Assembly: GCF_988243305.1 (NCBI RefSeq)
Contig: NZ_OZ547136.1
Length of the DNA: 64,000 bases
Direction: 5' to 3' (one strand)
Part shown: one piece after another, positions 62 to 33,785 of the stretch
Layout: each line of letters begins with the position of its first letter
Numbering within the stretch: position 1 is the stretch's first letter
Position numbers and translations under genes: made by a program
The notes under the pieces: generated by a model
The model's database searches: none
What the model saw: the letters and a program-made list of their open reading frames with translations, nothing else
Told to the model about the DNA's origin: nothing

Positions 62-3674
<3,613 letters not shown>

Positions 3675-3712
3675 TGCTTTGCGGGCCGACGAGAAATGTC
3701 GGCCCGCATTAT

Positions 3713-6499: not shown

Positions 6500-6809
6500 C
6501 GGTTACCTTCTCCACTTTTACAGAACATAACGGCACCTCGCTGTCGGATGCTTTTGCTCTTTGGGATTATCAAAGCGGCAGATATTCTTTCATCTTAAAT
6601 TTTACGTCTTTGTCCTGACTGATGTTTATCCTGTTTGGCTGCGAAATAAATATAAAATTAACACATATATTTTAATGATGTATTTTTATAAATTATTTCC
6701 CACATGAATTTTAATAAATTTAATCTATTCCTTTATACGCAATACATTTACTTTCCTCTTTTGATGATCTTAAATATCTTATTTTTCGTAATGTGTATAA
6801 CAAGGAATA

Positions 6810-7328: not shown

Positions 7329-7343
7329 TAATCAGGAGGAGTC

Positions 7344-7883
7344 ATGAAGAAAGTTTTTCTTTGCGCCATCTTAGCCTCCTTAAGCTATCCGGCTATCGCC
7401 TCATCATTGCAGGATCAACTCTCTGCTGTCGCAGAAGCGGAACAGCAAGGTAAAAATGAAGAGCAAAGGCAGCATGACGAATGGGTCGCGGAGCGCAACA
7501 GGGAAATCCAGCAAGAGAAGCAACGTCGCGCAAACGCCCAGGCCGCGGCTAATAAAAGAGCGGCAACGGCAGCGGCGAATAAGAAAGCTCGTCAGGATAA
7601 ACTGGACGCCGAAGCCTCTGCGGACAAAAAACGCGATCAAAGTTATGAAGATGAGCTACGCAGCTTAGAGATTCAGAAACAAAAACTGGCACTGGCGAAA
7701 GAAGAAGCCCGCGTTAAGCGAGAAAACGAATTTATCGATCAGGAACTGAAGCACAAAGCTGCGCAAACCGATGTGGTGCAATCTGAAGCTGACGCAAACA
7801 GAAATATGACTGAAGGCGGTCGCGATCTGATGAAAAGCGTGGGCAAAGCAGAAGAGAACAAATCGGACAGCTGGTTTAATTAA
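7344..7883 (+). CDS. yfgI: YfgI, coiled-coil periplasmic protein
   Basis: 179-aa ORF with signal peptide and an Ala/Gln/Lys/Glu-rich low-complexity region; RBS AGGAGG 6 bp upstream; 15 bp downstream of yfgH. Confidence 0.88.
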   Translation: MKKVFLCAILASLSYPAIASSLQDQLSAVAEAEQQGKNEEQRQHDEWVAERNREIQQEKQRRANAQAAANKRAATAAANKKARQDKLDAEASADKKRDQSYEDELRSLEIQKQKLALAKEEARVKRENEFIDQELKHKAAQTDVVQSEADANRNMTEGGRDLMKSVGKAEENKSDSWFN

Positions 7884-7921
7884 TCGATGTAAGTAACTTC
7901 AAGCCTATAATTCTTGAAGAT

Positions 7922-7954
7922 AAAAAACCCTCTGTAGTAACAGAGGGTTTTGTT
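7922..7954 (+). terminator. Rho-independent terminator downstream of yfgI
   Basis: Stem ccctctg(7928-7934)/cagaggg(7941-7947), 6-nt loop, followed by ttttgtt; an A-run precedes the stem, so it could act bidirectionally. Confidence 0.7.
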
Positions 7955-8210
7955 CATTCATAGTGCAGGGATCAAAATCATTCCCACTCAGCTATCAATG
8001 AGAAAATAAAATATAAATAAATCAATGCCTTGAAACAAACCACTTAGCAGATACCACGAAAAATACCATGTCTCAATAATAGAGCTGTCTACAGGCTGTT
8101 CAGACGAACAATATGGCCGCTCTACTCCTAATAGAGTCCTTAGCTCGGTCACATCACTAATTTCAACATAGATGTGAACAAAATGAGGCATCAACGCACC
8201 TATTCAGTTA

Positions 8211-9725: not shown

Positions 9726-9740
9726 GAATGACCTGATACT

Positions 9741-10136
9741 ATGACCACGATTGATCCGCCCTCATGGTATCAGTATTTATTTTATAACCCGCCTCTCAAT
9801 ACACCAAGAGATTGCGGTAAAGTGGAGCAGCATGATTACCAGCTTTATCTGGCGATAAATGATATTGAGCATACGAAAACGAAAGCAATGTCATCTAAGA
9901 CCAATAGTATCTGCGAGCAGTTCCATAAAACGATACTGAACGAGTTTTATCAGGTGACGTTCCGCAAAAAGTTATATGATGATCTTGAAGCATTACAATC
10001 GGTTCTTGATGAATGGCGGGTTCACTATAATAATGAGCGAACCCATCAGGGAAAAATGTGCAGTGGCCGAACGCCGATGGAAACGTTACTTGATGGAAAG
10101 CACATCTGGGATGAGAAAAACTTAAGCCAGATGTAA
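9741..10136 (+). pseudogene. truncated DDE (rve/integrase-core) transposase remnant, 3' end only
   Basis: 131-aa ORF whose C-terminal ~85 aa (KTNSICEQFHKTILNEF...YNNERTHQG...GRTPME) match the C-terminal part of integrase-core DDE transposases (IS481/IS3-like), including the catalytic-E region. The N-terminal DD part is absent and the first ~50 aa look unrelated. It begins 16 bp after the ATPase stop. Confidence 0.55.
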
Positions 10137-10229
10137 TCTGACAGATACCTTTATAAATAGCCGGTAATTGTCAGATCAGGTCTGATCTTATACAACTTAA
10201 CTGTGTTATGAGCAATACTGAGGATAGAT

Positions 10230-11000
10230 ATGGAACCAGAGAAATTTGCTGAAACTGCAATAGGATTTACCAAAAGCCCTCTTGGTATCATTGCACTCTT
10301 TATTGTTCTCGTTTATGGATTTGCCTCTTTCGTCGTTGGCTTTGGTAATGGCTTATCAGAGCATATAGCTCCCCTTATTTATTTCATGGTTTTCTTTCCT
10401 GTCATTGTGTTTCTTGGCTTTCTCTGGCTTGTTGCGAAACATCATAATAAGCTTTACGGGCCGTCAGATTTCAAAGATGAAAATAATTTTTTAAGAGCGC
10501 AAATAGCTACAGCAGCATCATTGACCGCCGCCACAGCAAAACAGCCTGAAAATAGTGCAGGGGTCACTGAAAGCCAACTGCGAAAAATCGTCAACGTTGT
10601 ATCCAATGCAAAACGGCAGAGTAAGCATGAAAAATGGCGAAATCGTATTTTATGGGTGGATGATCGACCAGAAAATAATGTTTACGAAAGACAGGCATTT
10701 GAGGCACAGGGAATAGAGTTCGCTTTAGCTCTTTCAACTGACGAAGCCTTAGAATTGTTAAAAACAAATAAGTTTGCAGCTATTATTTCGGATATGGATC
10801 GCAAAGAAGGGGCGCAAGAAGGTTATGTCTTACTAGAAAGATTACGCGCAATGGGAGACAAAACTCCTTTTATGATCTATGCGTCCTCAGATCTACCAGA
10901 GCACAAGAAAATGGCGAGAGAAAGAGGTGCAATTGGCTCCACTAATCGAGCAGAAGAACTCTTTCAAATTGTCATGGGTGCGATTACCAATGGCTCATAA
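10230..11000 (+). CDS. membrane-anchored protein with C-terminal CheY-like receiver (REC)-like domain
   Basis: 256-aa ORF with SD GAGGA upstream. Two predicted TM helices (IIALFIVLVYGFASFVVGF; LIYFMVFFPVIVFLGFLWLV). The C-terminal ~120 aa follow a (beta-alpha)5 pattern with receiver-like acidic positions: ILWVDD at the end of beta1, AIISDMD at the end of beta3, FMIYASS at the end of beta4. The beta5 lysine is not obvious. Confidence 0.45.
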   Translation: MEPEKFAETAIGFTKSPLGIIALFIVLVYGFASFVVGFGNGLSEHIAPLIYFMVFFPVIVFLGFLWLVAKHHNKLYGPSDFKDENNFLRAQIATAASLTAATAKQPENSAGVTESQLRKIVNVVSNAKRQSKHEKWRNRILWVDDRPENNVYERQAFEAQGIEFALALSTDEALELLKTNKFAAIISDMDRKEGAQEGYVLLERLRAMGDKTPFMIYASSDLPEHKKMARERGAIGSTNRAEELFQIVMGAITNGS

Positions 11001-11214
11001 CAAAGCCATTAAATTCGCCCCCTACGGCTACGGTTGCCGGGCGCTCACAACGGCCAGTATCTCATTTGTCGATTTGATCGATCTCATTGTAAGCACTTCC
11101 GGCTAGACTATTTTGGAATACCGCCATTTTGTTGGTAATGGCTTTTATCTTTAGGCCATAGCCGATGTTATAGAGTTACGGCCTTAAAAATAGAAGTCAT
11201 ACACTCAATGAAAA

Positions 11215-11250
11215 ACCAATAAAAAATGCCAGTCAGCAAACTGACTGGCA
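11215..11250 (-). terminator. Rho-independent terminator downstream of guaA
   Basis: Inverted repeat tgccagtcag(11227-11236)/ctgactggca(11241-11250) with loop caaa; on the minus strand it is followed by a U-run (complement of the A-run 11211-11226). Confidence 0.7.
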
Positions 11251-11294
11251 TTAAAGTTAGTTGGAAAGGCTTAATTTACTATTTATAGCCAGTC

Positions 11295-12872
11295 CTACTC
11301 CCACTCAATGGTAGCTGGCGGCTTGCCGCTGATGTCATACACCACGCGGGAAATACCGTTCACTTCATTGATAATGCGGTTGGAAACGCGACCGAGGAAG
11401 TCATACGGCAGGTGCGCCCAGTGTGCGGTCATAAAGTCGATGGTTTCGACAGCACGCAGAGAAACAACCCAGTCATACTTACGACCATCGCCCATTACGC
11501 CAACAGAACGTACTGGCAGGAAGACGGTGAACGCCTGGCTGACTTTGTCGTACAGGTCCGCTTTACGCAGTTCTTCAATGAAGATGGCGTCAGCACGGCG
11601 CAGCAGGTCACAGTACTCTTTCTTCACTTCACCCAGAACACGAACGCCAAGGCCTGGTCCCGGGAACGGGTGACGGTACAGCATGTCGTACGGCAGGCCC
11701 AGCTCCAGACCAATCTTACGCACTTCGTCTTTGAACAGCTCTTTCAGCGGTTCAACCAGGCCCATCTTCATCTCTTTCGGCAGGCCGCCCACGTTGTGGT
11801 GAGATTTGATGACGTGTGCTTTACCGGTTGCAGAAGCAGCAGATTCGATAACGTCAGGGTAGATAGTGCCCTGCGCCAGCCACTTCACGTCTTCCAGTTT
11901 CAGCGCTTCTTCATCGAATACTTCAACGAAAACGCGCCCGATGATTTTACGTTTTGCTTCCGGATCATTTTCGCCAGCCAGCGCTGACAAGAAGCGATCT
12001 TCTGCCGGTACATGAACAATGTTCAGACCAAAGTGATCGCCAAACATATCCAGAACCTGCTCTGCTTCGTTGAGACGCAGCAGGCCGTTGTCGACGAATA
12101 CGCAAGTCAGGTTTTTACCGATAGCGCGGTGCAGCAGCATTGCAGTCACGGAGGAATCCACGCCACCAGAGAGGCCGAGGATCACTTTATCGTCGCCTAC
12201 CTGCTCGCGGATGCGAGCTACGGCGTCGTCGATAATTTTCGCTGGCGTCCACAGGGCTTCACACTGGCAGATATCACGCACAAAACGCTCCAGCATGCGC
12301 ATACCCTGGCGGGTGTGAGTCACTTCCGGATGGAACTGTACACCATAGAAGCGTTTTTCTTCGTTAGCCATAATGGCAAACGGGCAGCTTTCGGTGCTGG
12401 CTACGGTGACGAAGTCGGACGGGATAGCGGTAACTTTATCGCCGTGGCTCATCCAGACATCGAGCAGCGGTTTACCGTCTGCAGTCAGCGCATCTTCGAT
12501 ACCGCGAACCAGTGCGCTGTCGTTTACGACTTCAACCTGCGCGTAGCCAAATTCACGTTCGTTAGAGGCTTCAACGTGACCGCCCAACTGCATTGCCATG
12601 GTCTGCATGCCATAGCAAACGCCGAATACCGGTACGCCTGCTTCAAAGACATACTGCGGCGCACGCGGGCTGTTTTCTTCGGTGGTGCTTTCCGGGCCGC
12701 CGGAAAGAATAATGCCGCTTGGGTTGAAGTCACGAATTTGTGCTTCTGTCACATCCCACGCCCACAGTTCGCAGTAAACACCCAGTTCACGCACGCGGCG
12801 CGCAACCAGTTGAGTGTACTGAGAACCGAAGTCCAGAATGAGGATGCGATGCTTATGAATGTTTTCCGTCAT
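11295..12872 (-). CDS. guaA: GMP synthase (glutamine-hydrolysing)
   Basis: 525-aa ORF. N-terminus [36 protein letters not shown], class-I glutamine amidotransferase plus ATP-pyrophosphatase domain (SGGVDSSV), C-terminal PATIEWE. Confidence 0.97.
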
Positions 12873-12940
12873 TGACGCTTATTCCGAGGCAAGTGAAACA
12901 GATAATATAAATCGCCCGACATGAAGTCGGGCGAAGAGAA

Positions 12941-14407
12941 TCAGGAGCCCAGACGGTAGTTCGGGGACTCTTTAGTAATGGTCACGTCGTGAACGTGGCT
13001 TTCCTGAATGCCCGCACCGCTGATACGTACAAACTCCGCTTTAGTACGCAGTTCGTCGATAGTACCACAGCCGGTCAGGCCCATACAGGAGCGCAGGCCG
13101 CCCATCTGCTGGTGAATGATCTCTTTCAGGCGACCTTTATAGGCCACGCGACCTTCGATACCTTCCGGCACCAGTTTGTCGGCAGCGTTGTCGCTCTGGA
13201 AGTAACGGTCAGAAGAACCTTTGGACATCGCACCCAGAGAGCCCATCCCACGGTAAGATTTGTAAGAACGGCCCTGGTAGAGTTCGATTTCACCCGGAGA
13301 TTCTTCAGTACCCGCCAGCATGGAACCCACCATTACCGCGCTTGCACCTGCGGCGATAGCTTTGGCGATATCGCCTGAGAAACGGATACCACCGTCAGCG
13401 ATAACCGGAATACCGGTGCCTTCCAGGGCTTCTACGGCGTCAGCAACGGCGGTGATCTGCGGAACACCTACGCCAGTCACGATACGAGTCGTACAGATAG
13501 AGCCAGGGCCAATGCCGACTTTAACCGCGCTGCAACCAGCTTCTGCCAGAGCGCGTGCCCCCGCAGCTGTTGCCACGTTGCCGCCGATGATTTGCAGATC
13601 CGGATATTTAGTACGAGTTTCACGGATACGCTGCAGAACGCCTTCAGAGTGACCGTGAGAGGAGTCGATCAGCAGAACGTCAACGCCTGCGGCAACCAGC
13701 GCGTCAACACGCTCTTCGTTACCCGCACCCGCGCCAACCGCTGCACCAACACGCAGACGGCCTTGCTCGTCTTTACAGGCGTTCGGTTTACGTTCTGCTT
13801 TCTGGAAATCTTTCACGGTGATCATGCCGATCAGGTGGAATTCGTCATCAACCACCAGCGCTTTTTCAACGCGTTTTTCGTGCATTTTTGCCAGCACAAC
13901 TTCACGGGCTTCACCTTCACGCACGGTGACCAGACGTTCTTTCGGCGTCATGTAAACGCTAACCGGCTGGCTCAGGTCGGTAACAAAACGTACGTCACGA
14001 CCGGTGATAATACCCACCAGTTCGTTTTCTTCGGTAACGACCGGGTAGCCCGCAAAGCCGTTACGCTCGGTCAGTTCTTTCACTTCGCGCAGCGTCGTGG
14101 TTGGCAGAACAGTCTGCGGGTCAGTCACCACGCCAGATTCGTGTTTTTTCACACGGCGAACTTCTTCCGCCTGGCGTTCAATGGACATATTTTTGTGGAT
14201 AAAGCCGATACCGCCTTCCTGAGCCAGAGCAATAGCCAGGCGCGCTTCCGTTACGGTATCCATTGCTGCGGAAAGCATAGGGATATTCAGACGAATAGTT
14301 TTCGTCAGCTGGGTGCTGAGGTCAGCAGTATTCGGCAGAACGGTAGAATGAGCAGGAACGAGGAGAACGTCGTCAAACGTCAGAGCTTCTTTAGCGATAC
14401 GTAGCAT
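12941..14407 (-). CDS. guaB: IMP dehydrogenase
   Basis: 488 aa from the ATG at 14407 ([18 protein letters not shown]...); the track ORF extends 23 codons further upstream to 14476. Catalytic-cysteine loop [11 protein letters not shown] and CBS domains present. Confidence 0.95.
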
Positions 14408-15945
<1,538 letters not shown>

Positions 15946-16000
15946 GATGCGCCAGCATCGCATCCGGCACTGGCTCCCAGGCCACGCCAGATGCGCCATG
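15946..16000. repeat. REP-like palindromic element(s)
   Basis: gatgcgccagcatcgcatccggc and a second ccagatgcgccatgctgg copy immediately after the xseA stop; resembles E. coli REP units. Confidence 0.45.
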
Positions 16001-16004
16001 CTGG

Positions 16005-19000
16005 TTACTGGAAGCAGGTCACCAGACCCGGTTTATTCATTAGCGTGATACTACAATCCTGTGCTCCAGTGCCTTCGTCCATTCCACACTGTTGAGAGGA
16101 CAAATAAGGAAAACTTGGTGAAGACGGCCATCCCAGTGAATTAAAAACAGTGTGCAACAACTCTAATTCATTGTATGTCGGTGCATTTTCTATGCTGCCA
16201 CACTGCCTTGCAATATCCCATTTACTGGCATCAATGATATGTGCAGAAGCCCAGTTTTCGTAGTTAATAATCGGTGAGGATACGGGATTAGCCCCGGACG
16301 GCAATTCTGTCGTTAACAACGGTCGATGTAGCGATTTACCATTCACCACTACAGTGTCTGCCATATGTCCCCAAAAGTGCGCCGAGGAAACATTCGGGCT
16401 GGTTGGTACCGTAAAAATAGCGTCCAGCGTGTCTGTCGCGGAAGCGTAATTAGCCAGAGTAACCGTCAGTGGCGTTTTATAACCAGGGGTATTATCCTGG
16501 CGGAGCGTAAAACTTGCCGTCCCATCCGCGCCTGTCATGCCACTAATGGTATTACCGCTTTCACTCAGCGTAACAGCCGAACCAGATAACGGCTGAACGA
16601 TGAGATCGTCCATCGCCACCACATCACCATACAACGTCGCCCCAGCGTTACGCGGCGATGCATCGCCACGTTTCAAAGTAAATTCCACATTCGGTACCGT
16701 ATTCCCGGCGCTGTCTTTCACCGTCACGGTAACGGGCATGGCTTCGCCTTTTTTCACTTTCGCCGCCTGAATAGCTGCGTCAAACGCTGTTGAGGTCAGT
16801 GTGACGCTGGAAACCGTTGCGCGCGCAGACACCAGACACGCCTGATAAGCGGCATTACCATTCAATGTCGTTGTGCCATCTTTCATATTGAGCGACTGAT
16901 TTTTACCATCTGTAGTCTTATCCTGCGCCCACCAGTAATAATAAACTGACCAGCCAGTTTCCGTCGTAAGGGTGTTATTGGGATAACGTTGATACAGTGA
17001 CTTCATATCGCTGAGCAACGGTTGCCGGGCTTCCTCACAAGGGCTGAGGCTGGCATTTGCTTTAGTGGTTGACGAAAAATAGGGCCAGTCCTCATTATTG
17101 TTATTGGTTTTATTTACCCCGGAGGTCGATGGCAGCTCCTTCCACAATTTCGGTCGTTCAAAGACGGTTCCATTTGCCGCTGTCACCGTTTCTGGCATAT
17201 GACCCCAGTAGTCGGCATCCTGGGCGTCAGGGCTGGTGACCACGGTAAATATCAGGTCCAGGTTTGACGTGATCTGCGGATCTTGTGCAAGCGAGACCGT
17301 AAACGGCGTTGCCAGGCCGGTGGTGGCGTTTTGCGTAACATTGAACGTCACTGTGCCATCACTGCCGGTAAAACCAAGCCATTTTGCCGTATCCTGAGCA
17401 AAGGAAATACGGGTTGCTGTCGGTGTGACGACATCTACAATAAGATCATCTGCCAACGATGAGGGCCTAATTCCTGAACGACTTTTCGCCTGCGCCCGCT
17501 GAAGCGTCACGCCCTCACCACTCACCAGGTTGCCATTTTGGTCTTTTACTGTCACGACTAACGGGATTGTCTCGCCCTTTTTCGCCGATGCCGAAGGTGT
17601 GCCGCCGTTACTGGCGGTTTTCGTCTCATCAAATGCTACTGAAGTCAGGGTAACGCTTGACGGCTTAGAGTGAGGCTGTGCCAGGCAGAGCATTAGAGCA
17701 ACCGGAGAGAGTGCGGATGATGCTCGTCCCGTGCTTAGGTTAAAGACCTGATAATACCAGGAGCTACCATTGGAGTTAAGTAATTCATAAATCCACCAGT
17801 TTCCTGACGCTATCGGCAACCCCAGATCTTTCGTTAACGCTCCGTTTGGGTGATCGTCATATAACCCCTGCAATTCGCTGAGGCGCGGTTGATATTCCAG
17901 CGAACAATCTGCCGTCGCTTTTTGAGTACTATATATATATGACCATGTCTCATTATTACCGTTTACCGAGCTCCCCGTAGTCGCTTCCGCTGCCAGTAAT
18001 GGGCGCTTGAAGGTCACGCCTGCCGAACTGGTAAACGTTTCCGGCATATGGCCCCAGTATTTCGCTTTTGGCGAATCCGGGCTGGTTATCACCGTGAAAA
18101 TGACATCCAGCGTGACGCTTTTCGAGGTATCGCGCATGAGTTCTGCGCTGAGCGGCGTTGACAGCCCATAACTGCTATTCTGGCTGACCTCAAACGTAGC
18201 TTTACCATCGCTCCCTGTCTTCAGAAGAGCCTGCGTCCCATCCCCATACAAGATTGACGTTACCCCAGTAGGTTCCACAGGTATGATGGTAAGATCATCT
18301 GCAGAGGCATCGTACGCAGCTTTAGCGCGGTTCAGCGCAGTCCCTCGTTTAAGGTTAAAGCTGGCACCTGGCAGTGGATTGCCTGCGCTATCTCGCACCG
18401 TAACCGTCATCGGGATAACCTCTCCCTTCTTCGCTGTTGCGCTGGGCCTGCCATCATTGCTGGCCGTTTTCGTTGCATCCTCCGCCGTTGAGGTCATTTC
18501 AATAGAAGCCGCCTCTGGATGAGGGTTTACCAGGCACAGCATTAATGCCGAGGTGGTTGAAGACGCTCTTCCACTTGATCCATTTAACAGATAAATATAT
18601 TGATCGTACCAGTTACCCGCATATGCCACCATGTCGTAAGCCCACCAGTAGCTATTTACCGGAATACCCAGATCGGTCTTTATCGCACGACTTGGGTGTT
18701 CGTCGTACAATGCCTGTAGTTCGCTTAACAGTGGTTGATAATGTACATCGCACCCGCTTTTATCGATATCCCCCTTTGTTGCCGATCTCAACACGGCCCA
18801 CTCTTCATTGTCTTCTATAAACGACTGGCCCGACGATCTTTCAGCAGAGAGTAAGGGGCGTTTGAAGGCAGTACCAGAACGCGTAGTGAACGTTTCCGCC
18901 ATATGCCCCCAGTAACTTGCCAGGGGGGTATCCGGGCTGGTTATCACGGTAAACATCACGGGTAATTTGTTGGATTCCAGGCTCGACTGATAGGCCTGAG

Positions 19001-22000
19001 CGTACACATTGGTTACCAGGCCTATAGAATCATCCTGCTTTACCGTAAACGTGGCTGTCCCGTCTGCACCTGTCACCGCATAAAGGGAGATTGATGGAGT
19101 ATCCACTCTTGCCGACGTTCCCGCAGCGTTGATTACAGAGATAGTTCTGTTCGACAACTGTACATTCTGGCGATTTGTCGATCCTTCACGTTTGAGAATA
19201 AACGGAACATTTGGTACGACATTTCCCTGCGCATCTTTTGTCACCACGCGAATCACCGCGTCGTCACCTTTTTTCCGTTTTAGTGCGCTGAGGGTTTCGT
19301 CAACTTTGACAAATTGTGTCGCATCGTTCGCTTCAACAATAATGTGGCTGGTCACCGCCACTGGGGTAGCCCGACAACTTAGCAGTCCTATACTGCTTGA
19401 CATGACCTCCGTTCCATCACCCGTTTTTAACGAAACCGCTTTAAAATTAAATGTTTGAGTGTAATAGGCAACAACCGTACTGGAGATATAGGCGCGTGAT
19501 ACAGGCCATCCCGTAACGTCATGTATTGGCACGTAACCTTCATCGGCATACAGTGACTCCAGCTCACTTTCAATCGGGACATATCCTGCACCGCAACCAT
19601 TTACAGATGTGTTGTTCGACTGGTCCGGCGAGAACAGTGACCAGCTCTCTCCATCTTCCTGAAAAGAGCTTCGACTGGTTGTAACGGAAAGCTCATCTTG
19701 CAATAACGGTCTTTTATAAATAAGCCCGCCTGCACCGGTCATCGTTTCGGCCATATGCCCCCAGAATTTTGCTTTAGGGGTATCGGGGCTGGTTATCACC
19801 GTAAAGACTACCGGAAGCATTGATTTTACGTTATTATCTGTATCCAGCATGGCGGTCAGTTCGGTTTTTAAACCCGTGGTATTGTCCTGTTTCAGTGCAA
19901 GTGTTGTCGTACCATCTGCGCCGGTAACGCCATAAATCAGTGCTGTTGTTGAGGAAAAATTACTCTGCGTGTTACCCCAGGCATCCGTCACGATGAGCGC
20001 GCCTGCTGTCACCGTTGTAGACGCATTTGCCCGATTGACGCTAAGGTTACGTTTAAGCGTAAACGCGGTATTTCCCACCGGGTTACCCTGCGAATCTTTA
20101 GTGGTCACGCGAACCACGACTTCTTCCCCTTTTTTCGCTTTGACAACATTATTCGTACTGTCAAATTTTGTGGGGTCCGCAGCCTCAAGAACGATTTGGC
20201 TAGCCTTGACGATCGGCGTCGTCTGGCAGGTAAGCAGTTCTTTTGTGGCCGATGGAATTATCGAACTGGTGCCTGAACTGAGATTGACGGCCTTGAAGTC
20301 ACGCTGTTCCAGACTACTGCTGGCTGTCGTGCTGGTAAGGTAACTTGAGGCGACGGGCCAGCCCTGAACCGTTTTCATCGCATTGCCACGGTTGGCTTCA
20401 TACAATGACTCCAGCCCGGCCTGAGAGGGAACATATTCACTACCACAACCATTAGAGGATGTGCTTGTCGCCTGAGTTTGGGTAAATTGCGCCCAGTCCT
20501 CATTATCTTCTGCAATCGCTGTTCGACCCGACGTACTGGATAACTCTTTCAACAATAATGGGCGTTTAAAGACCGTTCCATCCGCAGCCGTCACCGTTTC
20601 CGGCATATGCCCCCACATTTTCGCTTTATTGCTGTCCGGGCTGGTGACAACGGTAAAAATGGTATCGAGGGTCGCTTTTTTCGTTGTGTCTGAATAGAGC
20701 GCAGCGGTCAGCGACGTTTTTGTGCCATGGGTATCCGGGCGGGTAATAGTGAGAATTTTAGTGCCATCGCTGCCGGTCATCGCGCTGTATGCTGCGGCGG
20801 TATCATTGAGCGAAGTTTCATCCGCCAGGCCACTATTGATCACAACCGGCGCAACCAGCGCATCACCGCTACCGGCAATGTGTTTTTCGTTTGATCGTGT
20901 ATAACCATCGCCACGCTTCAGGGTAAAAGGCATATCACCCAATGGATTGCCCTGAGCATCTTTTACCGTCACCTTCACCTGTAGCGTTTCGCCTTTTTTC
21001 AGCTTCGCCGCATTTGCTGCCGCGTTCCACTGCGCCGGGTCCACCACTTCCAGCGTAATGCTGCTGGCAGGATTGTTAGCCGTCGTCAGGCAACTGACAT
21101 AAACCGCCGTGCTACCGCCAACGGTCCGCGCGCCATCGTTGAGGGCTATGGTGTAGTAATGCGGCACCTGATCCGCGGGCGAACTGCTCCAGTAGGGCTG
21201 ACGCTGCGTTGGCCAACCGTGTACCGTTTGAACGGCGTTACCGCTGTTAGCATCATAGAGCGCGTTAAGCTGGGAACGGCGTGGGAGCATATTGGCACCA
21301 CAGCCACCTTTACTGGTGCTGGAAGTGTTGGCCTGGCTAACGCGCGACCACACTTCGTTATTTTCCGTTAATGTGCCGTCCGGGCTGGACACTTCCGCAG
21401 CCAGCCGGGGTCGGGCAAAGGTTAATGCATCGACGGTAATCGTCTCATCCATATGCCCCCACATCTGCGCGCCAACCGCATCCGGACTGGTGAGCGTAGT
21501 GAAAATCACATTGTAATTAACAGTATTGGGAATATAGGAGTTTACAGGCGCAATATTCAGCGGCGTCGCTAAGCCCACACCTTGCGGTTGCTTAATTTCA
21601 ACAGTAGCAAAACCCTGCGCATCCGTAGTACCTGCATAGACTAAAGACGGTTGCGATGTTCCGTAGAGCGTGCCATTCATCTCGATTGCGCCGCGGGTTG
21701 GATCATCGAAACCCGTGGTCTGCCCCTGACGATTTTTCCCCATATCTTTCGTGATGGTGAACGCGGTATACGGCACGGGCGCATTATTCAAGGCATTAAA
21801 GGTGCGTACCGTCATGGTAATCGTTTCACCCACTTTAGCCTGCGCTCTGCTGCTTGTGGAAACATCATGATCGGTGTTCGCAGCAATCTGGGCGACCATC
21901 TCATTGCCCGAACAAGAAAGGTAGTTTTGCTTAAAGCCGGAATAGGTGTCGATGTTGCCCGTGGCCAGGTTCACCGACGCGTGCGACGTCTCTTCCACCG

Positions 22001-24047
22001 CACTAAGATACGCTTTTTGCAACGTTGGCCAGCCATATTCGGTGCCGATGACATTGGCTGGATGTGCGGCAAACAAACTGTGCAATGAGCTTTGGCTCGG
22101 AATATGACCTAAACCACACTCAGCCTGCATACTGCTATTCTGATCAAACAGCGCCCAGTCTTCGTTATTTTCCCGCACTGCTCCCAGTTCGTTGTCGGTT
22201 TCATCCGCCAGCCGTGGGCGTTTAAAGATATTATTCGCTTCAATAATGCCTAACATATGTCCCCACATCCGCGCTTTGTCGGAATCAGGGCTGGTGATCA
22301 CCGTAAAAATAACGTCTTTCTCATCCGAGGCGGTAAAATCACTGCGCATTTTCGCGGTGATGTGTGTTTTCACCCCCACGCCGCCTGGCTGGGTCAGCGT
22401 CAGAGAGGCCTCTCCGTTAGCATCAGTGATCCCTTCATAGGTATGGGCGTCAACTTTGCGAACGTTACTGCCACCATCAATTTGTACCGGGTGCGTCTCC
22501 CACGCAGCGTCAGTTTGATTCTTACGGTTAACACCGTCATCCAGATGCAGCGAAAAGTAGTAGTAAGCCAGCGGCTGATCGTTGTTCTTGCTATCGGTAA
22601 TCGTCAGGCGTAAAGAAGCCTCTTCCCCCACCTTTACTTTCATCGCTTTTATCGTCGAATCATAACTGCCCGGCGTCAGTACCAGCTTCGGTTCAACATC
22701 GGGCGCTTCTTTATCGACACAGCTCACAATAAACGTCGTATCGTCCGGTTTTTGCGCTTCGCTGCGGTTCGAAACATCCGCCGCATGGTGCTGGCCACTC
22801 ATCCCCGCCAGTGATGACCAGTAGAAATTACCCTGCATCGGCCAACCAGCCACATCCTGCACTGACGTTGGCACCACCGTCGCCAGCGCACCGAACTGAC
22901 GCATTCCGGGCAAAATGTCGCAATGTTTATCCGCGCCGCTCCAGGTAAAGGTGGACCAGGTTTCATTGTGATCGTTAACCGTACCGTTTTCATTATCGAC
23001 TTCCGCCGCCAGTTTTGGTCGACTAAAAGTGTAATCACGGGCCTTCAGCGTATCGGGCATATGACCCCACATTGTAGCCTGCGGGACATCCGGGCTGGTG
23101 AGGACGGTAAAGATCACTGCCGTTTCACTGGCCTGAGCAATACCCGCGAGGCTCGCGACCAACGGCGTTTTTACACCAAGGCCGTTGGCCTGGGTGACCG
23201 TAACCGTGGCAACACCATTCGCATCGGTAGTACCACGATATTCCGTCGCGGTGGTGGTTAATTCGGTCGTGCCCAGTTTTACCGGCGCAGTATTGTTCAC
23301 TACACCCTGGCGGTTTTCAGCATCTTTGCGTTTGATAACAAAAGGAATATTCCCCACAACATTACCGACGCAATCTTTGGTGGTGACCGTTAACGTGATA
23401 CTGCCGCCAACCGTCGTTTTCGCCGCACCGGAGGATTCGTCATAGCCCGCGGCGCTGACGGAAATAAGGTCACCCTGCGCGGGCGCAATCTTCAGCGTCA
23501 CTTTCTGATCGGCGAGCGTCAGAACACTTTCATAGGGATAGCCCGTCGAGGTGAGTAAATATAACAGCGGCATGGTCTGTTGGGGATCAGGCTGCGCCCA
23601 GGCGACCAGCGAACGCCCGGCAAGTCCCTGAGCGCAAAACGAGCGATCTGCGACTGGCTGTGGGTCCAGTAAGGTGTCCGGCGTCGCGGCATCCGCCCAA
23701 ACTAAAGATACTGTCGGTGGCGTTTGGTTTTCCCAACGTGGGGTGGAAATGATATCGCCTTCTCTGTCTTGCGGATTGGTGACGAGCAATTTAGAGACGC
23801 TAATATCCGCGCTGAATTCACTCGGTTTAGCGGTAAACGCTACCTCATGCGTCTTTGCAGGATCCAGAAAGACACTGCCCTGGTAGACGGGTATGCTGGC
23901 ACTGTCGGCGGTGGGCACGGTACCGTTAAATTCGCCGACCGTATCTGAAGAGTCTTGCCATGCAGATTCTGCCCATGACCGCCCAGGCAGCATTGCGCTT
24001 ATCAGCAATGCGCATAACACAAGGATTTTATTCAGGGTCAGGGACAT
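16005..24047 (-). CDS. ratA: RatA-like giant secreted/outer-membrane repeat protein (Big_1-like Ig domains)
   Basis: 2680-aa ORF with signal peptide [26 protein letters not shown]. Nine copies of a ~200-aa module, each with a Big_1-like segment (KKGE..v.VTVKD..GNpv.n..FtLKR) and a conserved IFTVxTSPD....WGHMxET motif. Sits with sinI/sinH between xseA and yfgJ, like the Salmonella CS54 island. Confidence 0.8.
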
Positions 24048-24119
24048 GACAGAAACTCCACCGGTTGTTAAACGGACGCTTGTCGCATCAACATATTTTG
24101 CTTAATCCGGGATTAAGCA

Positions 24120-24157
24120 AAATATGCGGAAACAGCATTCCCTTGCGGGAATGCTGC
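24120..24157 (-). terminator. putative terminator downstream of sinI
   Basis: Hairpin cagcattccc(24133-24142), loop ttgc, gggaatgctg(24147-24156), 11 bp after the sinI stop; moderately U-rich tail on the minus strand. Confidence 0.45.
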
Positions 24158-24167
24158 TGAGTACGCG

Positions 24168-25145
24168 TTATTTGTGTTTGTAAATAATGTGAAGTTTGTA
24201 CCCCTGTACCCCGTCGCCGTTGGTCGGGATGGTAAGAGCTTCTTTACCATCGCGCGCAGGGCCGTTAAGGTTGGTTCTGGCGTCTTCGTTGGTCGCAGGG
24301 ATGACCAGATTGTTATTATCGAAGCTTGAGTTAACGATACCACCCGAGGTGCCGAGCTGTTGGCTACTCCCAGAAAGTACCCAACGGAAATCATAATTGG
24401 CGGTAACGTCAGCATCGGTACCCGCATCAAACTTGCCGTTTTTGTTCTCATCCGAGTACAGTTTGGCCACGTAGGTTTTGCCAAGTTCGATTGGCGTGCT
24501 GCCGTTGATAAGGTTGATACTGGTACCATCAACAAAGATGGCGACTTTCAGGTTCTGGTTAACCACCGGCCCTGGCGCAACGTTGTCGCTGTCGCTTCCG
24601 CCGCCGCTGGCAGTGGAAATGTCATAAAGATGCAGCGCAGTCCCGACGTTTGGCGTACCGGTCTGCGTGGTTGGCGTAATTTCAATACCGATATAACGAC
24701 CACGGTCGTCATCGGTAAGAGTGTAACTGGTCACCTTCGTTGCCAGCTCTTTTGGATCGTTACCCTGAGCGTCCTTGTAGCTCATCCAGCGGATAGTATC
24801 GATAGTTTTCGCGTTATCGCCCAATACCCCAAGATCCACGTCGCCTTCGGTATCACCAATTTCCCAACTTACGGTTAATTTATCACCCGAGTAAAGACGC
24901 TTGTCCGTTTCACTGCCTGTCGGGCGAGCGCCTTTTAGATCAGAAGTCAACGTTACATGGTCGGCATCTGTCGTAGCGCTTCCCCCTTCCGAATAGAGCC
25001 ACGGAATGGTTCCCTGGAAAATATTGGTTTCGCCGCTGTCGACCCAGGCGCTTTCTTCCGCCAGCGCCACAGGTGCCACACAATAACCTGCCAGTGCCAG
25101 CGCCAATGCGATCCGGGTCAGACCGCGTCTTTTATCCTGCTTCAT
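24168..25145 (-). CDS. sinI: SinI-like secreted protein (paralogue of the SinH C-terminal passenger region)
   Basis: 325-aa ORF with signal peptide (LTRIALALALAGYCVAPVALA). C-terminus VIPATNEDARTNLNGPARDG...GDGVQGYKLHIIYKHK parallels the SinH C-terminus VIPATNREAAQTYGAQAGDGLQGYGLRVLYTKK. Confidence 0.75.
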   Translation of the reverse strand: MKQDKRRGLTRIALALALAGYCVAPVALAEESAWVDSGETNIFQGTIPWLYSEGGSATTDADHVTLTSDLKGARPTGSETDKRLYSGDKLTVSWEIGDTEGDVDLGVLGDNAKTIDTIRWMSYKDAQGNDPKELATKVTSYTLTDDDRGRYIGIEITPTTQTGTPNVGTALHLYDISTASGGGSDSDNVAPGPVVNQNLKVAIFVDGTSINLINGSTPIELGKTYVAKLYSDENKNGKFDAGTDADVTANYDFRWVLSGSSQQLGTSGGIVNSSFDNNNLVIPATNEDARTNLNGPARDGKEALTIPTNGDGVQGYKLHIIYKHK

Positions 25146-25199
25146 TGATGCTCTCCTTAATGAACCTTCAGCGACTGGCCGACTGGCCTTACGCCAATC

Positions 25200-27377
25200 T
25201 TATTTTTTGGTATACAGCACGCGTAAACCGTATCCCTGCAAGCCATCTCCCGCTTGTGCGCCATAGGTTTGCGCTGCTTCGCGGTTAGTGGCCGGAATCA
25301 CAATGTCCTCATTGGAAGTGTTCGCCTGTGCACCCACTTCACCATTGATGCTCTTGCCGGTAAATTCCCACTTGTAGTCGTACTGCGCCATCTCTTCGTC
25401 AGTCAGTTTTTCGACCTGCTGGAAGACACCGTCTTTATTGCTGTCACGCCACAAAACAAATCGATAAGTGTTGTTGAGCGGCAGCGGTTCTTTATCTTTA
25501 CCTATCAGGTTGCTGGGTTTAGCTGCCCCCACACGATAGATAAATGCATTTAGCCCACCAATTTCTGCCCCGAGGAAAGTGACATCCACATAGTTACTGT
25601 CGTCGTAGGGCGCAGCTTTTGCTTTCCAGCGATAGGTGCCGGGTAAGGTACTGGAGAGGGTGACAGTGCCCTTTTCTTTATCTTGTTTAGCGATAAAAAC
25701 GCAGGGGTTGTCGGTCGAGCAAGGCTTGTTGGTTAACGTCACTCGTTTGTCCTGCGCGTCGTAAAGCTGCGGCGTGAGGTTATCTTCCGGCAGCGCATCG
25801 CCATTGCGGTCGGTGTTATCGCCAAAGCTGTCGGTTACATCGAGATCCATCACCACACCATCAACGCCATCTGCCTGAGCGCTGGCTTCGTGGCTGTGGT
25901 TGTTCTCTTCCGGCACGTTCGCGATGTTATTAACAATCAACTCTATTTTACGGTCCTGCTGAACGGTGATTTCCACCACGCCAGAGTTCTGTCGGTTGCC
26001 CTTTTCATCTTCCAGTGCCAGACGTACTCGCCAGGTATTGAGTTTTTCTTGTTCGGCTTTGTCAGAGCTGTACTGCCAGGCGGGCAGCACCAGGTTCCAG
26101 TGGTTATTGTTACCCTCTGTCAGGGTATTCTCTTTGATAACCGGCATAACCAACGTGCGGGCAGCATTGTTTTTCGCCTGCCATGACGCAGCGACAATTT
26201 TGTAGTGGTGGTTGATAAGCGCGTTAATGGTCCACTTACATTTTTCCAGCCCGACGGCCGCTTCGGGAGTGTCCTTAATGACGCACTCAGGGTGCTCGTT
26301 GGTGGCATCCGCTTTTAACCACAGGGTGACATCAAGCGGATCTTTTTCTTTGTATTCCAGAACAATAAAGTTATTACGCTCAACAAAATCATGACGACTG
26401 CCCATCAACGAGTGAGCCGCTTTCACTTTATCGCTATCCAATTGATCTTTTAGCGGAACGCCGAACTGATAATTAAGAGTGGCATTAATGCTGACATCGC
26501 TGTTATCTCCGGTCCCCGCTTTATAGTCCGCCCCAACGGTTAGTAATGGCACCGGTTGATAATTCAGTCCAAGTGTTACCGCGTAGGGATCTTTCTCCAA
26601 ATTATCCGTACCAAAAAGGGCGACTTCATCGCCGTAATATTGCTCGAAGACAACTTTGCCCCCCAGTTGCGGATAAGAAGGTAACCAGGCTTCGGCACGA
26701 ATATCCCAGCCGCGCGCAGGGCGTTCTTCATAAAAGCCGAAATCTTCAGAGTCTTTCCAGTCAGAAAGCGGATGATAATAGTTGCCAGAGAATTTTAAAT
26801 AATCAGTCCACGCTTCGCCGCCTAAACCTAAACGGCGATGTCCTCGGGTAAAATCATAATCATAAAATACATTTCCACCCAATAACCATTCATTAAAATT
26901 ATGTCTTACCCCAAGACCAATATTCCCGATTGTACGATCTTCTTTTCGTTGCGCAGAAAATTGACTGAAATAAACAGTGGTTTGATTATCGTACCAGGGA
27001 ACAAAATAATCGATGGAACTGCCATCCAGATCGCCGCCCTGGCCAATGGAGAGGTTCGAACGGACCTTACCGTAGGGAGAGAGAGTGTCTTCAATATAAG
27101 ATTGTGCGGTTGAGATGATTTGACTTTGCAGATAGCTTCTGGCCTGAGATTCCAGCGCCTCAGGGGTCAAGTTTTCAAACCCTTGCGTGGCGGAGTTGAT
27201 GACGTAATCGGCTCCGCGCTCTTTCAGCGATTTACCCTTGTTGGTTTGTTCATCCCGCTGTGCTGCCTGGCTACCTAAATCAGGTAACGATTCGTTTTGC
27301 TTAACATTTATCTCTGGTGCCGCGAAAGCAGCACCAGAGATAAATGTTAGAATAATACAGCGTTTCCATCGCAGCAT
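25200..27377 (-). CDS. sinH: SinH-like intimin/invasin-family inverse autotransporter
   Basis: Track ORF 25200..27407 starts at a TTG. The ATG at 27377 (MLRWKRCIILTFISGAAFAAP, signal peptide) has an AGGGAAAG SD-like sequence upstream. The N-terminal half has the intimin/invasin beta-barrel signature region (GLGVRHNF...NVFYDYDF...GGEAWTDYLKFSGNYYHPLS...LNYQPVPLLTVGADYK), followed by Ig-like passenger domains. Confidence 0.8.
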   Translation of the reverse strand: MLRWKRCIILTFISGAAFAAPEINVKQNESLPDLGSQAAQRDEQTNKGKSLKERGADYVINSATQGFENLTPEALESQARSYLQSQIISTAQSYIEDTLSPYGKVRSNLSIGQGGDLDGSSIDYFVPWYDNQTTVYFSQFSAQRKEDRTIGNIGLGVRHNFNEWLLGGNVFYDYDFTRGHRRLGLGGEAWTDYLKFSGNYYHPLSDWKDSEDFGFYEERPARGWDIRAEAWLPSYPQLGGKVVFEQYYGDEVALFGTDNLEKDPYAVTLGLNYQPVPLLTVGADYKAGTGDNSDVSINATLNYQFGVPLKDQLDSDKVKAAHSLMGSRHDFVERNNFIVLEYKEKDPLDVTLWLKADATNEHPECVIKDTPEAAVGLEKCKWTINALINHHYKIVAASWQAKNNAARTLVMPVIKENTLTEGNNNHWNLVLPAWQYSSDKAEQEKLNTWRVRLALEDEKGNRQNSGVVEITVQQDRKIELIVNNIANVPEENNHSHEASAQADGVDGVVMDLDVTDSFGDNTDRNGDALPEDNLTPQLYDAQDKRVTLTNKPCSTDNPCVFIAKQDKEKGTVTLSSTLPGTYRWKAKAAPYDDSNYVDVTFLGAEIGGLNAFIYRVGAAKPSNLIGKDKEPLPLNNTYRFVLWRDSNKDGVFQQVEKLTDEEMAQYDYKWEFTGKSINGEVGAQANTSNEDIVIPATNREAAQTYGAQAGDGLQGYGLRVLYTKK

Positions 27378-27586
27378 GCACTTTCCCTGTGACAATGATA
27401 CAGTCAAAAATAAGCTTTAATATTGTATCCCTGATTATTCAGAAAGGCATGTCATAAAGAATAAATATATTCTTAATTATTTAAATTAGTGATTTCACTC
27501 AATTACATTAGTTATTCCACTAATAACAGATTGTTTTACCATTCACATATTAAATATAAATGATAAAACAATATATTCACATGATA

Positions 27587-27802
27587 TTAAGCAATAACAA
27601 ATTCAACGCGTTTTTTAGATATTAAACCGTGCCCATGTTGGCAAAAATAGTCCACAGCACCACAAGCTTTTAACACTTGTAACGGCTGATGACACTCAGG
27701 GCAAAGTGCCTGGACGGTAAAGTCTTTGTCGCAAGTTGCACAGTGGGCAGTCTCGCCATTGCGTTCGAGAGGGGTTTTGCAGATTGGACAGTTGAGTGCC
27801 AT
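27587..27802 (-). CDS. yfgJ: zinc-ribbon protein YfgJ
   Basis: 71-aa ORF with two CxxC pairs (CPICKT...CATC and CPECHQ...CQHGH). Confidence 0.85.
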   Translation of the reverse strand: MALNCPICKTPLERNGETAHCATCDKDFTVQALCPECHQPLQVLKACGAVDYFCQHGHGLISKKRVEFVIA

Positions 27803-27864
27803 AAATACTCCTCGCGTGTTATTCGGTTTCCCTCTCCGTGTGGAAAGGGAAACCAGATAAGTGA

Positions 27865-29337
27865 TTACTTACTTTTCTTGATATGCTTCATCAGGCGCTT
27901 ACGCTTGCGCATCTGGGTTGGCGTCAGGGTATTACGCTTGTTCGCATACGGGTTTTCCCCTTCTTTGAACTGAATACGAATCGGCGATCCCATTACGTCC
28001 AGCGATTTGCGGAAGTAGTTCATCAGGTAACGCTTGTAGGAATCAGGCAGGTCTTTCACCTGGTTACCATGAATCACCACAATCGGCGGGTTATAACCAC
28101 CGGCGTGGGCATATTTCAGCTTCACACGACGACCGCGTACCAGCGGCGGTTGGTGATCTTCAACAGCCATCGTCATGATGCGCGTCAGCATAGAGGTCCC
28201 CACACGACGGGTGGAGCTGTCATACGCTTCACGCACTGATTCAAACAAGTTACCAACACCACTGCCGTGCAAGGCAGAGATAAAGTGCACACGAGCAAAA
28301 TCGATAAAGCCCAGACGGAAGTCCAGCGTTTCTTTCACCTGCTCTTTCACTTCCTGGCTCAGGCCATCCCACTTATTCACCACAATGACAAGTGAGCGCC
28401 CACTATTGAGAATAAAGCCCAGCAGGGAGAGATCCTGATCGGAAATACCTTCGCGGGCGTCAATCACCAACATCACCACGTTGGCATCTTCAATGGCCTG
28501 CAACGTTTTGATTACCGAGAATTTCTCTACAGCATCGGTGATTTTGCCACGTTTACGTACGCCAGCGGTGTCAATGAGCACATACTCACGTCCATCGCGT
28601 TCCATTGGAATGTAGATACTGTCACGCGTCGTACCAGGCATGTCATAAACAACAACGCGCTCTTCACCAAGAATACGGTTAGTGAGTGTAGACTTACCTA
28701 CGTTCGGACGACCCACAATCGCCAGTTTGATCGGCAGACTTTGCGGGTCGAAGTCGTCTTCCTCTTCTTCTTCGCCGTTTTCTTCTGCTTCAAATTGCGC
28801 CCAGTATTCGGCGTCTTCGTCGACTTCTTCTTGCGGTGCGAGATCTTCCATCCACGGCAGCAGCACGTGCTCCAGCAGACTTAATACGCCACGACCGTGA
28901 GACGCGGCGATCGGGTAGATTTCCCCTAAACCAAGCGAGTAGAAATCAACCACTGCCTGATCGGGATCCAGACCGTCAGTTTTGTTTGCCACCAGGAAGG
29001 TCGGTTTTTCACGGGAGCGCAGATGTTTAGCAATCGCTTCATCCGCCGGCATCAGGCCCGCGCGCGCATCCACCATAAACAGTACGACGTCCGCTTCTTC
29101 AATCGCCAGCAGCGACTGTTCCGCCATGCGGGTTTCTACACCGTCTTCTGTGCCATCAATCCCGCCGGTATCAATGCAGATAAACTCACGGCCTTCAATT
29201 TCTGCACGACCGTACTTACGGTCACGAGTCAGACCCGGGAAATCCGCAACCAGCGCATCTCGGGTGCGAGTTAGACGGTTAAATAACGTGGATTTTCCTA
29301 CGTTAGGGCGCCCGACAAGCGCGACCACAGGTACCAT
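27865..29337 (-). CDS. der: ribosome-associated GTPase Der (EngA), tandem GTPase domains
   Basis: 490 aa from the ATG at 29337 ([22 protein letters not shown]); the track ORF extends 13 codons further to 29376. Second G domain has [12 protein letters not shown]; acidic linker; KH-like C-terminus. Confidence 0.95.
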
Positions 29338-29454
29338 GTTTAAAGCCTCATTTTTATAAATCATCAGACAACGCACGCTATATTCGTGTCGTTGTTAAAA
29401 ACAGGAAAACGGCCCCTGTCCAGGAGCCGTTTTCAAAGTGAACGACAGAGACGA

Positions 29455-32556: not shown

Positions 32557-32666
32557 GTTTATTCTCTTTCTGAATATAAAAATGAACCCTCAACGCTTCC
32601 CTCAATGTTTCGGGAGCCATGCGGGTTCAATCATACACGGGAAGCGAGGCGCTTCCCATCACGTTA

Positions 32667-33785
32667 TTATTTTTCAACCTGCTGAACGTCAATTCGACGC
32701 GCTTCGTCCAGCTGACTGGCTTTCGCACGAATGCGCGCTTCCAGCTGGTCGATCATATCGTTGTTGTCCAGACGGTCTTTGCGCACGCCATCTTCATAGA
32801 GGCCGCTTTTCTTGTTACCGCCGGTGACGCCGAGTGTAGAAACCAGCGCCTCACCTGGGCCATTCACCACACAGCCGATAATCGAAACGTCCATCGGAGT
32901 GATGATATCTTCCAGGCGTTGCTCCAGCGCGTTAACCGTACCGATAACATCAAACTCCTGACGCGAACAGGTTGGACAGGCGATGAAGTTGATCCCGCGC
33001 GAACGGATACGCAGCGATTTCAAAATATCGAAACCGACTTTGATCTCTTCGACCGGATCGGCCGCCAGCGATACGCGCAGCGTGTCGCCGATGCCTTCAG
33101 ACAGCAGCAGACCTAAACCAATGGCGGATTTAACCGCCCCGCTGCGCGCACCACCCGCTTCGGTGATCCCCAGATGCAGCGGCTGATCGATCTGTTTTGC
33201 CAGCAAACGATAAGACTCAACAGCGAGGAAGACGTCTGACGCTTTCACGCTGACTTTGAACTGATCGAAGTTCAGGCGATCGAGATGATCAACATGACGC
33301 ATGGCGGATTCCAGCAACGCCTGCGGCGTCGGTTCGCCATACTTTTCTTGCAGATCTTTTTCCAGCGATCCAGCGTTAACGCCAATACGGATCGGAATGT
33401 TTTTATCGCGCGCACAGTCAACCACCATGCGAATACGCTCTTCATTACCGATATTGCCAGGGTTAATACGCAGACAATCGACGCCGTATTCCGCTACTTT
33501 CAGCGCAATGCGATAGTCGAAATGGATGTCAGCCACCAGCGGCACGTTAACCTGCTGTTTGATGAGTTTGAACGCTTCTGCCGCGTCCATCGTCGGTACT
33601 GAGACACGGACGATATCAGCGCCAACACGTTCCAACGCCTTGATTTGATTGACCGTTGCTTCGACGTCTGTCGTGCGCGTATTGGTCATGGACTGTACGG
33701 CGATGGGAGCACCATCGCCAATCGGCACATTCCCAACGTAAATACGTGTTGATTTTCTACGTTGAATTGGAGCCTGGTTATGCAT
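32667..33785 (-). CDS. ispG: 4-hydroxy-3-methylbut-2-en-1-yl diphosphate synthase (IspG/GcpE)
   Basis: 372-aa [39 protein letters not shown] with the C-terminal Fe-S cysteine cluster (ACPTCSRQ...GCVVNGPGE). Confidence 0.97.

Follow-up and report, generated by a model that had tools for sequence, protein, structure and literature searches.

Positions 16005 to 27586 of the window (the whole 64,000-nucleotide stretch of contig NZ_OZ547136.1, assembly GCF_988243305.1, that was analysed) hold three co-oriented open reading frames (ORFs), all on the minus strand and all with zero internal stops (16005..24047, 24168..25145 and 25200..27407 in the ORF listing). In their order of transcription they are sinH, which encodes an inverse autotransporter, sinI, and a ratA-like gene for a large repeat protein. 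The block begins with the stop codon of the ratA-like gene (16005) and ends at the base preceding the stop codon of yfgJ (27586), so that it takes in a 209-bp AT-rich stretch upstream of sinH. With a probability of about 0.88, the block is the known sinH-sinI-ratA ("ila") adhesin locus of Escherichia coli, intact and between xseA and yfgJ, where it canonically lies; its three genes form the core of the Salmonella CS54 island. No evidence contradicting this identity was found. The locus has been described before (Kingsley 2003; Heinz 2016; Goh 2019; Shea 2022; Xing 2023), with 'ila' cluster as the published name of the trio and iatB as a published name of sinH, and it is annotated by RefSeq; it is thus an ordinary locus. 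The preliminary description of this DNA, which had placed three co-oriented genes between xseA and yfgJ and had not regarded the locus as novel, was right on both points.

Over positions 14500-29400 (14.9 kb), the window and the chromosome of E. coli O169:H41 Res13-Lact-PER13-34 are 99.7% identical; the RefSeq products in that chromosome are 'intimin-like inverse autotransporter SinH', 'SinI family autotransporter-associated protein' and 'adhesion domain-containing protein'. The genome nearest to the window is therefore that of a porcine O169:H41 isolate, not of an extraintestinal pathogenic E. coli (ExPEC). The trio is 99.5-100% identical to that of an independent genome.

The sinH ORF runs from a TTG codon at 27407; the RefSeq annotation and signal-peptide logic favour the ATG at 27377, which gives a gene at 25200..27377 (minus strand) and a type Ve inverse autotransporter of 725 amino acids. 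SinH scores 1483 bits against the NCBIfam equivalog NF033423 (cut-off 999), with residues 1-725 aligned to model positions 1-730. Its signal peptide, read from the sequence, comprises residues 1-19 (MLRWKRCIILTFISGAAFA, followed by AP; cleavage between AFA and AP), its Pfam IAT_beta barrel residues 63-336 (E 9.4e-108), and its passenger the part C-terminal to the barrel (~340-725, ~385 residues). The IAT_beta barrel was the sole significant Pfam match, and no LysM, Big_1 or lectin domains were found in SinH by Pfam. The preliminary assignment of SinH to the intimin/invasin family is borne out by the equivalog score and the barrel, which SinH has in common with intimin and invasin, and the NCBIfam intimin model aligns to SinH residues 90-396. 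SinH differs from intimin in scoring 253 bits against an intimin cut-off of 1400, and from both intimin and invasin in having no LysM, Big_1 or C-type lectin domain detected by Pfam and no context of Tir or the locus of enterocyte effacement. In E. coli, SinH has been reported as surface-localised, as a protective antigen, and as enriched in phylogroups B2, D, F and G (PMC9937491); it has also been described as IatB together with a downstream gene (Goh et al. 2019), and as a vaccine antigen (Xing et al. 2023).

The gene sinI (24168..25145, minus strand) starts 54 nucleotides past the end of sinH and encodes a protein of 325 amino acids that scores 337 bits against NCBIfam NF040711 (cut-off 165). 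After a signal peptide read as residues 1-29 (cleavage between ALA and EE), residues ~33-190 consist of an A9-like immunoglobulin-like (Ig) module that runs on into a widely repeated Ig-like region, and a GGGSDSD linker then leads to a C-terminal domain (residues 198-325) homologous to SinH 608-725 (hhalign 99.4%, E 1.8e-21). Residues 33-113 align to the N-terminus of the RatA-like protein (residues 29-108; hhalign 89.8%, E 1.7e-6). SinI thus holds one module of each of its neighbours, SinH and the RatA-like protein. The preliminary description had called it a small SinI-like paralogue of SinH; the family name stands by the NCBIfam score, and the paralogy holds over the C-terminal ~120 residues only and not over the rest of the protein. 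Neither a beta-barrel nor a significant Pfam match was found in SinI, no PDB sequence was matched in a profile search, and an AlphaFold2 model (mean predicted local distance difference test score 63, with the C-terminal domain alone confident) retrieved nothing under E 0.01 from the PDB with Foldseek, merely generic beta-sandwiches.

Two further observations concern the N-terminus of SinI. Nine residues of its signal peptide (L14, A15, L16, A19, G20, Y21, C22, P25 and A29) are invariant across 15 SinI sequences that are just 41-71% identical overall to the SinI of the window; the invariant cysteine (C22) lies outside any canonical lipobox. A motif that follows the signal peptide in SinI, RatA and RatB, [ST]xx[IF][QN]GxxP, was considered as a secretion signal like those of two-partner secretion and was rejected. 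The motif is found as well in partner ORFs at distant inverse autotransporter (IAT) loci of Thorsellia and Aeromonas. When 1.84 billion representatives were searched, it was identified as strand A of an A9-like Ig module that is widespread and is present in 4-27 copies in giant repeat proteins, where the region of SinI adjoining the motif likewise recurs many times.

The ratA-like gene (16005..24047, minus strand) encodes a protein of 2680 amino acids that scores 5385 bits against NCBIfam PRK15316 (cut-off 3870). A signal peptide read as residues 1-26 (cleavage between SWA and ES) is followed by an N-terminal domain (~27-210), and past this ~210-residue N-terminal region Pfam detects nine consecutive pairs of BIg21 and InvE_AD (DUF823/DUF824) domains, which correspond in the DNA to nine repeat copies spaced at 804-855 nucleotides and just 61-76% identical. 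The protein is therefore the RatA-like 2680-residue repeat protein that had been recognised from the sequence at the outset. No beta-barrel or anchor was found in it. Against the Salmonella equivalogs it scores 2128 bits for RatA (PRK15315, cut-off 3700) and 2247 bits for RatB (PRK15314, cut-off 4079), below the cut-off in both cases; by these equivalog cut-offs the protein is classed as a family relative and not as an orthologue of Salmonella RatA or RatB.

Contigs of S. enterica carry the genes rodZ-ispG-hisS-yfgM-bamB-der-yfgJ-sinH-sinI-ratA-ratB, with products of 730 (SinH), 319 (SinI), 1865 (RatA) and 2435 (RatB) amino acids. The order yfgJ-sinH-sinI-ratA, the orientation, the chromosomal site and the architecture of BIg21 and InvE_AD repeats are the same in the window. 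SinH is 72.5% identical over its full length and SinI 45%, and the RatA-like protein of the window is 41% identical to RatA and 49% identical to the first ~1350 residues (N-terminal half) of RatB. In contrast to the CS54 island, the window lacks shdA and a second Rat gene (ratB), its single Rat protein, with 2680 amino acids, is longer than RatA (1865) and RatB (2435), and no further ORF was found in the 59-bp spacer between the ratA-like gene and xseA. The CS54-like organisation proposed in the preliminary description therefore holds for site, order and orientation and fails for the full five-gene content; with ratB and shdA missing, the window holds the CS54 core only. The order of the island is xseA-shdA-ratB-ratA-sinI-sinH-yfgJ (Kingsley et al. 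2003, as related in citing papers); the xseA side of the Salmonella locus was taken here from the literature gene numbering, which runs from xseA (STM2512) through shdA, ratB, ratA and sinI to sinH (STM2517; PMC3591323). Among Salmonella serovars shdA and ratB are variable, ratA-sinI-sinH is common, and some serovars have the core alone (PMC3680342). In E. coli, the ila cluster (sinH, sinI and ratA), reported in CFT073 (Shea et al. 2022, according to papers that cite it), has been described as derived from CS54, and its deletion attenuates urinary tract infection (PMC12928451, PMC12525524). The window shares with this cluster the trio, its order, the xseA-yfgJ site and the RefSeq product names, and differs in that its RatA-like protein is just 85% identical to that of strain EcN.

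The block is flanked by core genes, with guaA, guaB and xseA (exodeoxyribonuclease VII large subunit; 14569..15945, plus strand, from the ORF listing and RefSeq) on one side and yfgJ (a zinc-ribbon protein of 71 amino acids; 27587..27802, minus strand, from the ORF listing and RefSeq), der (a GTPase; 27865..29337, minus strand, from RefSeq, 100% identical in amino acids to that of K-12), bamB, yfgM and hisS on the other. It is accessory, as had been supposed from the adjacency of xseA and yfgJ elsewhere: it is absent from K-12 J53 and from O157:H7, where xseA and yfgJ converge with an overlap of 4 bp, and sinH was found at a coverage of at least 80% in 1740 of 5426 complete E. coli genomes (32%), in alleles that are 82-100% identical. 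The interval is thus not identical to that of K-12, nor are the best matches of the three proteins unrelated proteins, the two outcomes that had been named in advance as speaking against a CS54-like locus. The segment that K-12 lacks reaches from about 15938, within the final ~10 codons of xseA, to 27586, and the stop codon of xseA in K-12 comes from the TTAA at the 3' end of yfgJ, as a deletion would leave it.

The C-terminus of xseA and the N-terminal half of yfgJ differ between strains with and without the locus. The nucleotide identity of xseA to other E. coli, ~97% at its 5' end, declines to 62-87% where its 3' end, a locus-associated allele, adjoins the locus, and the YfgJ of the window, likewise of the locus-associated allele, is 66% identical in amino acids to that of K-12, 76% to that of Salmonella and 96-99% to those of locus-positive E. 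coli. Both genes are far more diverged than guaB or der, which suggests either linked ancient haplotypes or recombination imports that end in the flanks. Within the locus, the proteins of the window are 97.5% (SinH), 96.9% (SinI) and 85% (RatA-like) identical to those of the EcN (phylogroup B2) allele, and 89%, 67% and 66% identical, respectively, to those of the g1-11 allele. E. coli proper thus carries deep allele classes at this locus.

Genomes were scanned for the locus with SinH peptide patterns, one genome per species; the Salmonella locus, which the patterns did not pick up, was reached through a SinI homologue and the contig encoding it. The arrangement xseA...ratA-sinI-sinH-yfgJ is present in E. 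coli-like genomes, E. whittamii, E. albertii, other Escherichia, Pseudocitrobacter, Superficieibacter and Citrobacter, and together with Salmonella the cassette is found at the xseA-yfgJ site in five genera (Escherichia, Salmonella, Citrobacter, Pseudocitrobacter and Superficieibacter). In the cross-genus scan, protein identity falls along the operon (SinH 69-89%, SinI 39-70%, Rat protein 40-67%), and the Rat proteins vary in length from 1852 to 2716 amino acids.

The literature usually describes this locus as a horizontally acquired pathogenicity island, which would here have been inserted between xseA and yfgJ in the lineage of the source strain. Such an origin would agree with the clean junction in K-12 and O157, with the patchy distribution among E. 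coli genomes, with the divergence of xseA and yfgJ relative to guaB and der, and with a YfgJ that is nearer to that of Salmonella than to that of K-12. It would also agree with the observation that SinH is 84% identical in Pseudocitrobacter, where Der is 93% identical, and only 75% in Citrobacter MGH106, where Der is 96% identical; since the SinH of Pseudocitrobacter is closer than Der predicts, an exchange of alleles between genera by homologous recombination is hinted at. However, the hallmarks of a mobile island were not found: there is no tRNA gene in the window, there are no direct repeats flanking the block, no integrase or mobility gene is present among the ORFs or annotations, and the GC content (~0.50-0.55 over most of the block, with the AT-rich 5' end of sinH as the exception) is like that of the flanks. 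The xseA stop codon of K-12 fits a deletion, and as the cassette occupies the same exact site in five genera, a single presence in the ancestor, followed by losses and by replacement of alleles, is a more parsimonious account than a series of insertions. Insertion in this lineage is therefore considered unlikely, and the synteny suggests instead that the locus is ancestral at this site, hypervariable, and lost by clean deletion in lineages of the K-12 and O157 type.

Parts of the locus were also met in other settings. Two contigs of metagenome-assembled 'Collinsella sp.' genomes and a 426-bp contig of 'Rhizobium wenxiniae' carry sinH, sinI and ratA sequence that is 94-99% identical to the window, and are almost certainly E. 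coli contamination of these assemblies. In E. coli EH01-18-04-A (NZ_CP063515, 15230-21308), a sinH truncated at its 5' end adjoins dqlB, hok/gef, finQ, trbA and trbB genes of the IncI1-plasmid type, which indicates integration of plasmid DNA or a rearrangement at the yfgJ side.

Three conserved inverted-repeat structures were noted in the locus, for which no Rfam family was found at gathering or E-value thresholds. Directly 3' of the sinI stop codon lies a hairpin resembling an intrinsic terminator (24130..24156, minus strand), with a GC-rich stem of 10-12 bp, a GCAA loop and a following TTT(T)CC, which was missed by a terminator scan because its T-run is short. In an alignment of 12 loci from five genera including Salmonella, 100% of cells are paired, 6 of the 10 pairs covary, and none of 500 shuffles reach the score. 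This conserved terminator-like hairpin stands between sinH-sinI and ratA, and agrees with the published co-transcription of sinH and sinI (Shea 2022, as cited in PMC12525524). In the same spacer, upstream of ratA, is a perfect 17-bp palindrome (24092-24126, minus strand; CATATTTTGCTTAATCC-C-GGATTAAGCAAAATATG), whose core TTTGCTTA/TAAGCAAA does not vary among the genera and precedes a GTTGA that is likewise invariant; over the same 12 loci 96% of cells are paired and five pairs have changed on both sides. The palindrome may be an RNA element or an operator. Both structures are shared with the sinI-ratA spacer of CS54. In Escherichia sp. E1V33 this spacer has 290 nucleotides as compared with the usual ~110-120, and the strongly self-pairing insert, with content like that of repetitive extragenic palindromic sequences, sits within a duplicated terminator hairpin.

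The third structure is a near-perfect hairpin of 22 bp within sinH (27302..27349, minus strand), at mRNA positions +29 to +76, where codons 10-25 encode the core of the signal peptide. Its free energy is about -37 kcal/mol (z = -5.6 for its 143-nucleotide context), and it is kept in all Escherichia alleles examined. With the structure taken from one of the aligned, related sequences, 88% of cells are paired, compared with 34-48% for slid controls, eight pairs have changed on both sides, and in 500 shuffles the score was never reached. The compensatory substitutions change the encoded amino acids (in E. albertii ACGCTTAT/ATAAGCGT, in the window ACATTTAT/ATAAATGT), and the tolerance of G.U pairs indicates RNA rather than DNA. 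The hairpin is shorter in Pseudocitrobacter and Citrobacter and absent from the 5' coding region of Salmonella sinH, in which CS54 differs from the window. It is conceivable, if rather unlikely, that this hairpin is an undescribed cis-acting RNA element gating SinH output post-transcriptionally, which together with the terminator and the palindrome would form a dedicated regulatory architecture; it could act as a cleavage site for RNase III or as a translational or targeting pause.

The region upstream of sinH (27378..27586, minus strand; GC 0.43-0.44) presumably contains the promoter and the 5' untranslated region. No match to a consensus sigma-70 promoter was found there, and a scan for promoters and terminators gave a site count no higher than in shuffled sequence. 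The lack of a consensus promoter match in this AT-rich region, together with a hairpin of high stability near the start of the sinH mRNA that could restrict expression, might be taken as a sign that the locus is a remnant, silent or decaying, that no longer functions in this strain. This is very improbable in view of published phenotypes of mutants in the orthologous locus (PMC12525524, PMC12928451), of three intact ORFs, one of them of 8 kb, of the 99.5-100% identity of the trio to an independent genome, and of compensatory change that preserves the regulatory hairpins.

All three proteins start with Sec-type signal peptides, and SinI and the RatA-like protein have neither a barrel nor an anchor. 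In type Ve secretion, the barrel is inserted in the outer membrane through the beta-barrel assembly machinery (BAM) and exports its own passenger. By this biology and by published work on orthologues, SinH would be inserted by BAM and its passenger sent to the cell surface, where it would mediate adhesion, invasion and biofilm formation, roles that come from the literature on SinH orthologues (PMC9937491, PMC6714894, PMC12525524). SinI and the RatA-like protein might then reach the surface, or stay on it, through SinH, building a multiprotein adhesin in which SinH would be either a translocator like ZirT or a docking platform that acts via the shared Ig-like modules. A system of this kind, with SinH as translocator and SinI and Rat-like proteins as substrates, has already been proposed by analogy with ZirTSU (Heinz 2016, PMC4943183; PMC6714894), and secretion of ZirS is known to depend on ZirT (PMC2270342). 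As in ZirTSU, a gene for a protein with an IAT barrel is followed in the window by genes for barrel-less proteins with Sec signal peptides that share Ig-like modules with the IAT passenger. The locus differs from ZirTSU in that no zinc regulation is known for it, in that its putative cargo includes a protein of 2680 amino acids, and in that SinI matches the ZirU family (NF040485) weakly, with 32 bits against a cut-off of 100, which falls short of membership. On the strength of the ZirT-ZirS/ZirU precedent, the invariant trio and the shared modules, it is tentatively suggested, with chances judged to be slightly short of even, that SinI and the RatA-like protein need SinH in order to be exported or docked.

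Several observations weigh against such a dependence, beside the weak match of SinI to ZirU. The barrel is filled by the linker of its own passenger, which leaves no obvious path for a 2680-residue protein (Heinz 2016, PMC4943183); the conserved terminator between sinI and ratA means that ratA need not be co-expressed with sinH; IatB, the E. coli orthologue of SinH, gives biofilm without the downstream gene (PMC6714894); and the motif behind the signal peptides, since it recurs in giant repeat proteins, belongs to a shared Ig module and is no dedicated secretion signal. The pore-occupancy problem, the terminator and the biofilm result would be expected if SinH were a self-sufficient classical adhesin and SinI and the RatA-like protein were independent of it, periplasmic or released by some other route, and merely co-located. 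To the same effect, a table in PMC3680342 that cites Kingsley 2003 gives a virulence role for Salmonella mutants in sivH and ratB and none for those in ratA and sivI. This alternative is plausible and yet doubtful, because the trio and its order are kept in every genus examined despite a protein divergence of 40-70%, SinI shares one module with each of its neighbours, neither it nor the RatA-like protein has an outer-membrane targeting device of its own, and the related ZirT exports ZirS. The idea of SinH as a reusable type Ve translocator or docking platform had been hypothesised by Heinz 2016; the hairpins and the regulatory anatomy are reported here as new.

The locus mainly types the strain, as one in which an intact adhesin locus associated with colonisation and virulence is present. 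SinH is a current vaccine candidate against ExPEC, and the deep allele classes (the identity between E. coli alleles is just ~66% for SinI and the RatA-like protein) bear on vaccine coverage and on selection acting on surface adhesins. The residual interest lies in the conserved RNA hairpins, which offer handles for studying the regulation of the locus, and in a locus that is hypervariable and probably ancestral. The sharing of modules among SinH, SinI and RatA provides a testable route to the question of whether inverse autotransporters can serve co-encoded partners.

Elsewhere in the window, the interval between yfgI and guaA (~8256-11000) contains a second and much rarer accessory block with a GC content of 0.41, which encodes a 489-residue ATPase of the AAA/ABC type that matches defence ATPases weakly (PDC-M01A, 62 bits; AriA, PtuA, GajA-like), an integrase-core fragment and a receiver-domain protein of 256 amino acids; positions 1-14500 are covered to at least 80% in just 21 of the 5426 E. 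coli genomes. Over the 25 kb of core sequence at 31000-55999, only two of the 5426 complete E. coli genomes are at least 99% identical to the window (best 99.2%), so that the source strain belongs to a sparsely sampled lineage. Known RNAs are present at their expected core places, namely the sroE small RNA (32576-32667, minus strand), the ryfA small RNA (45510-45814, plus strand) and the iscRS stability element (53047-53156, minus strand).

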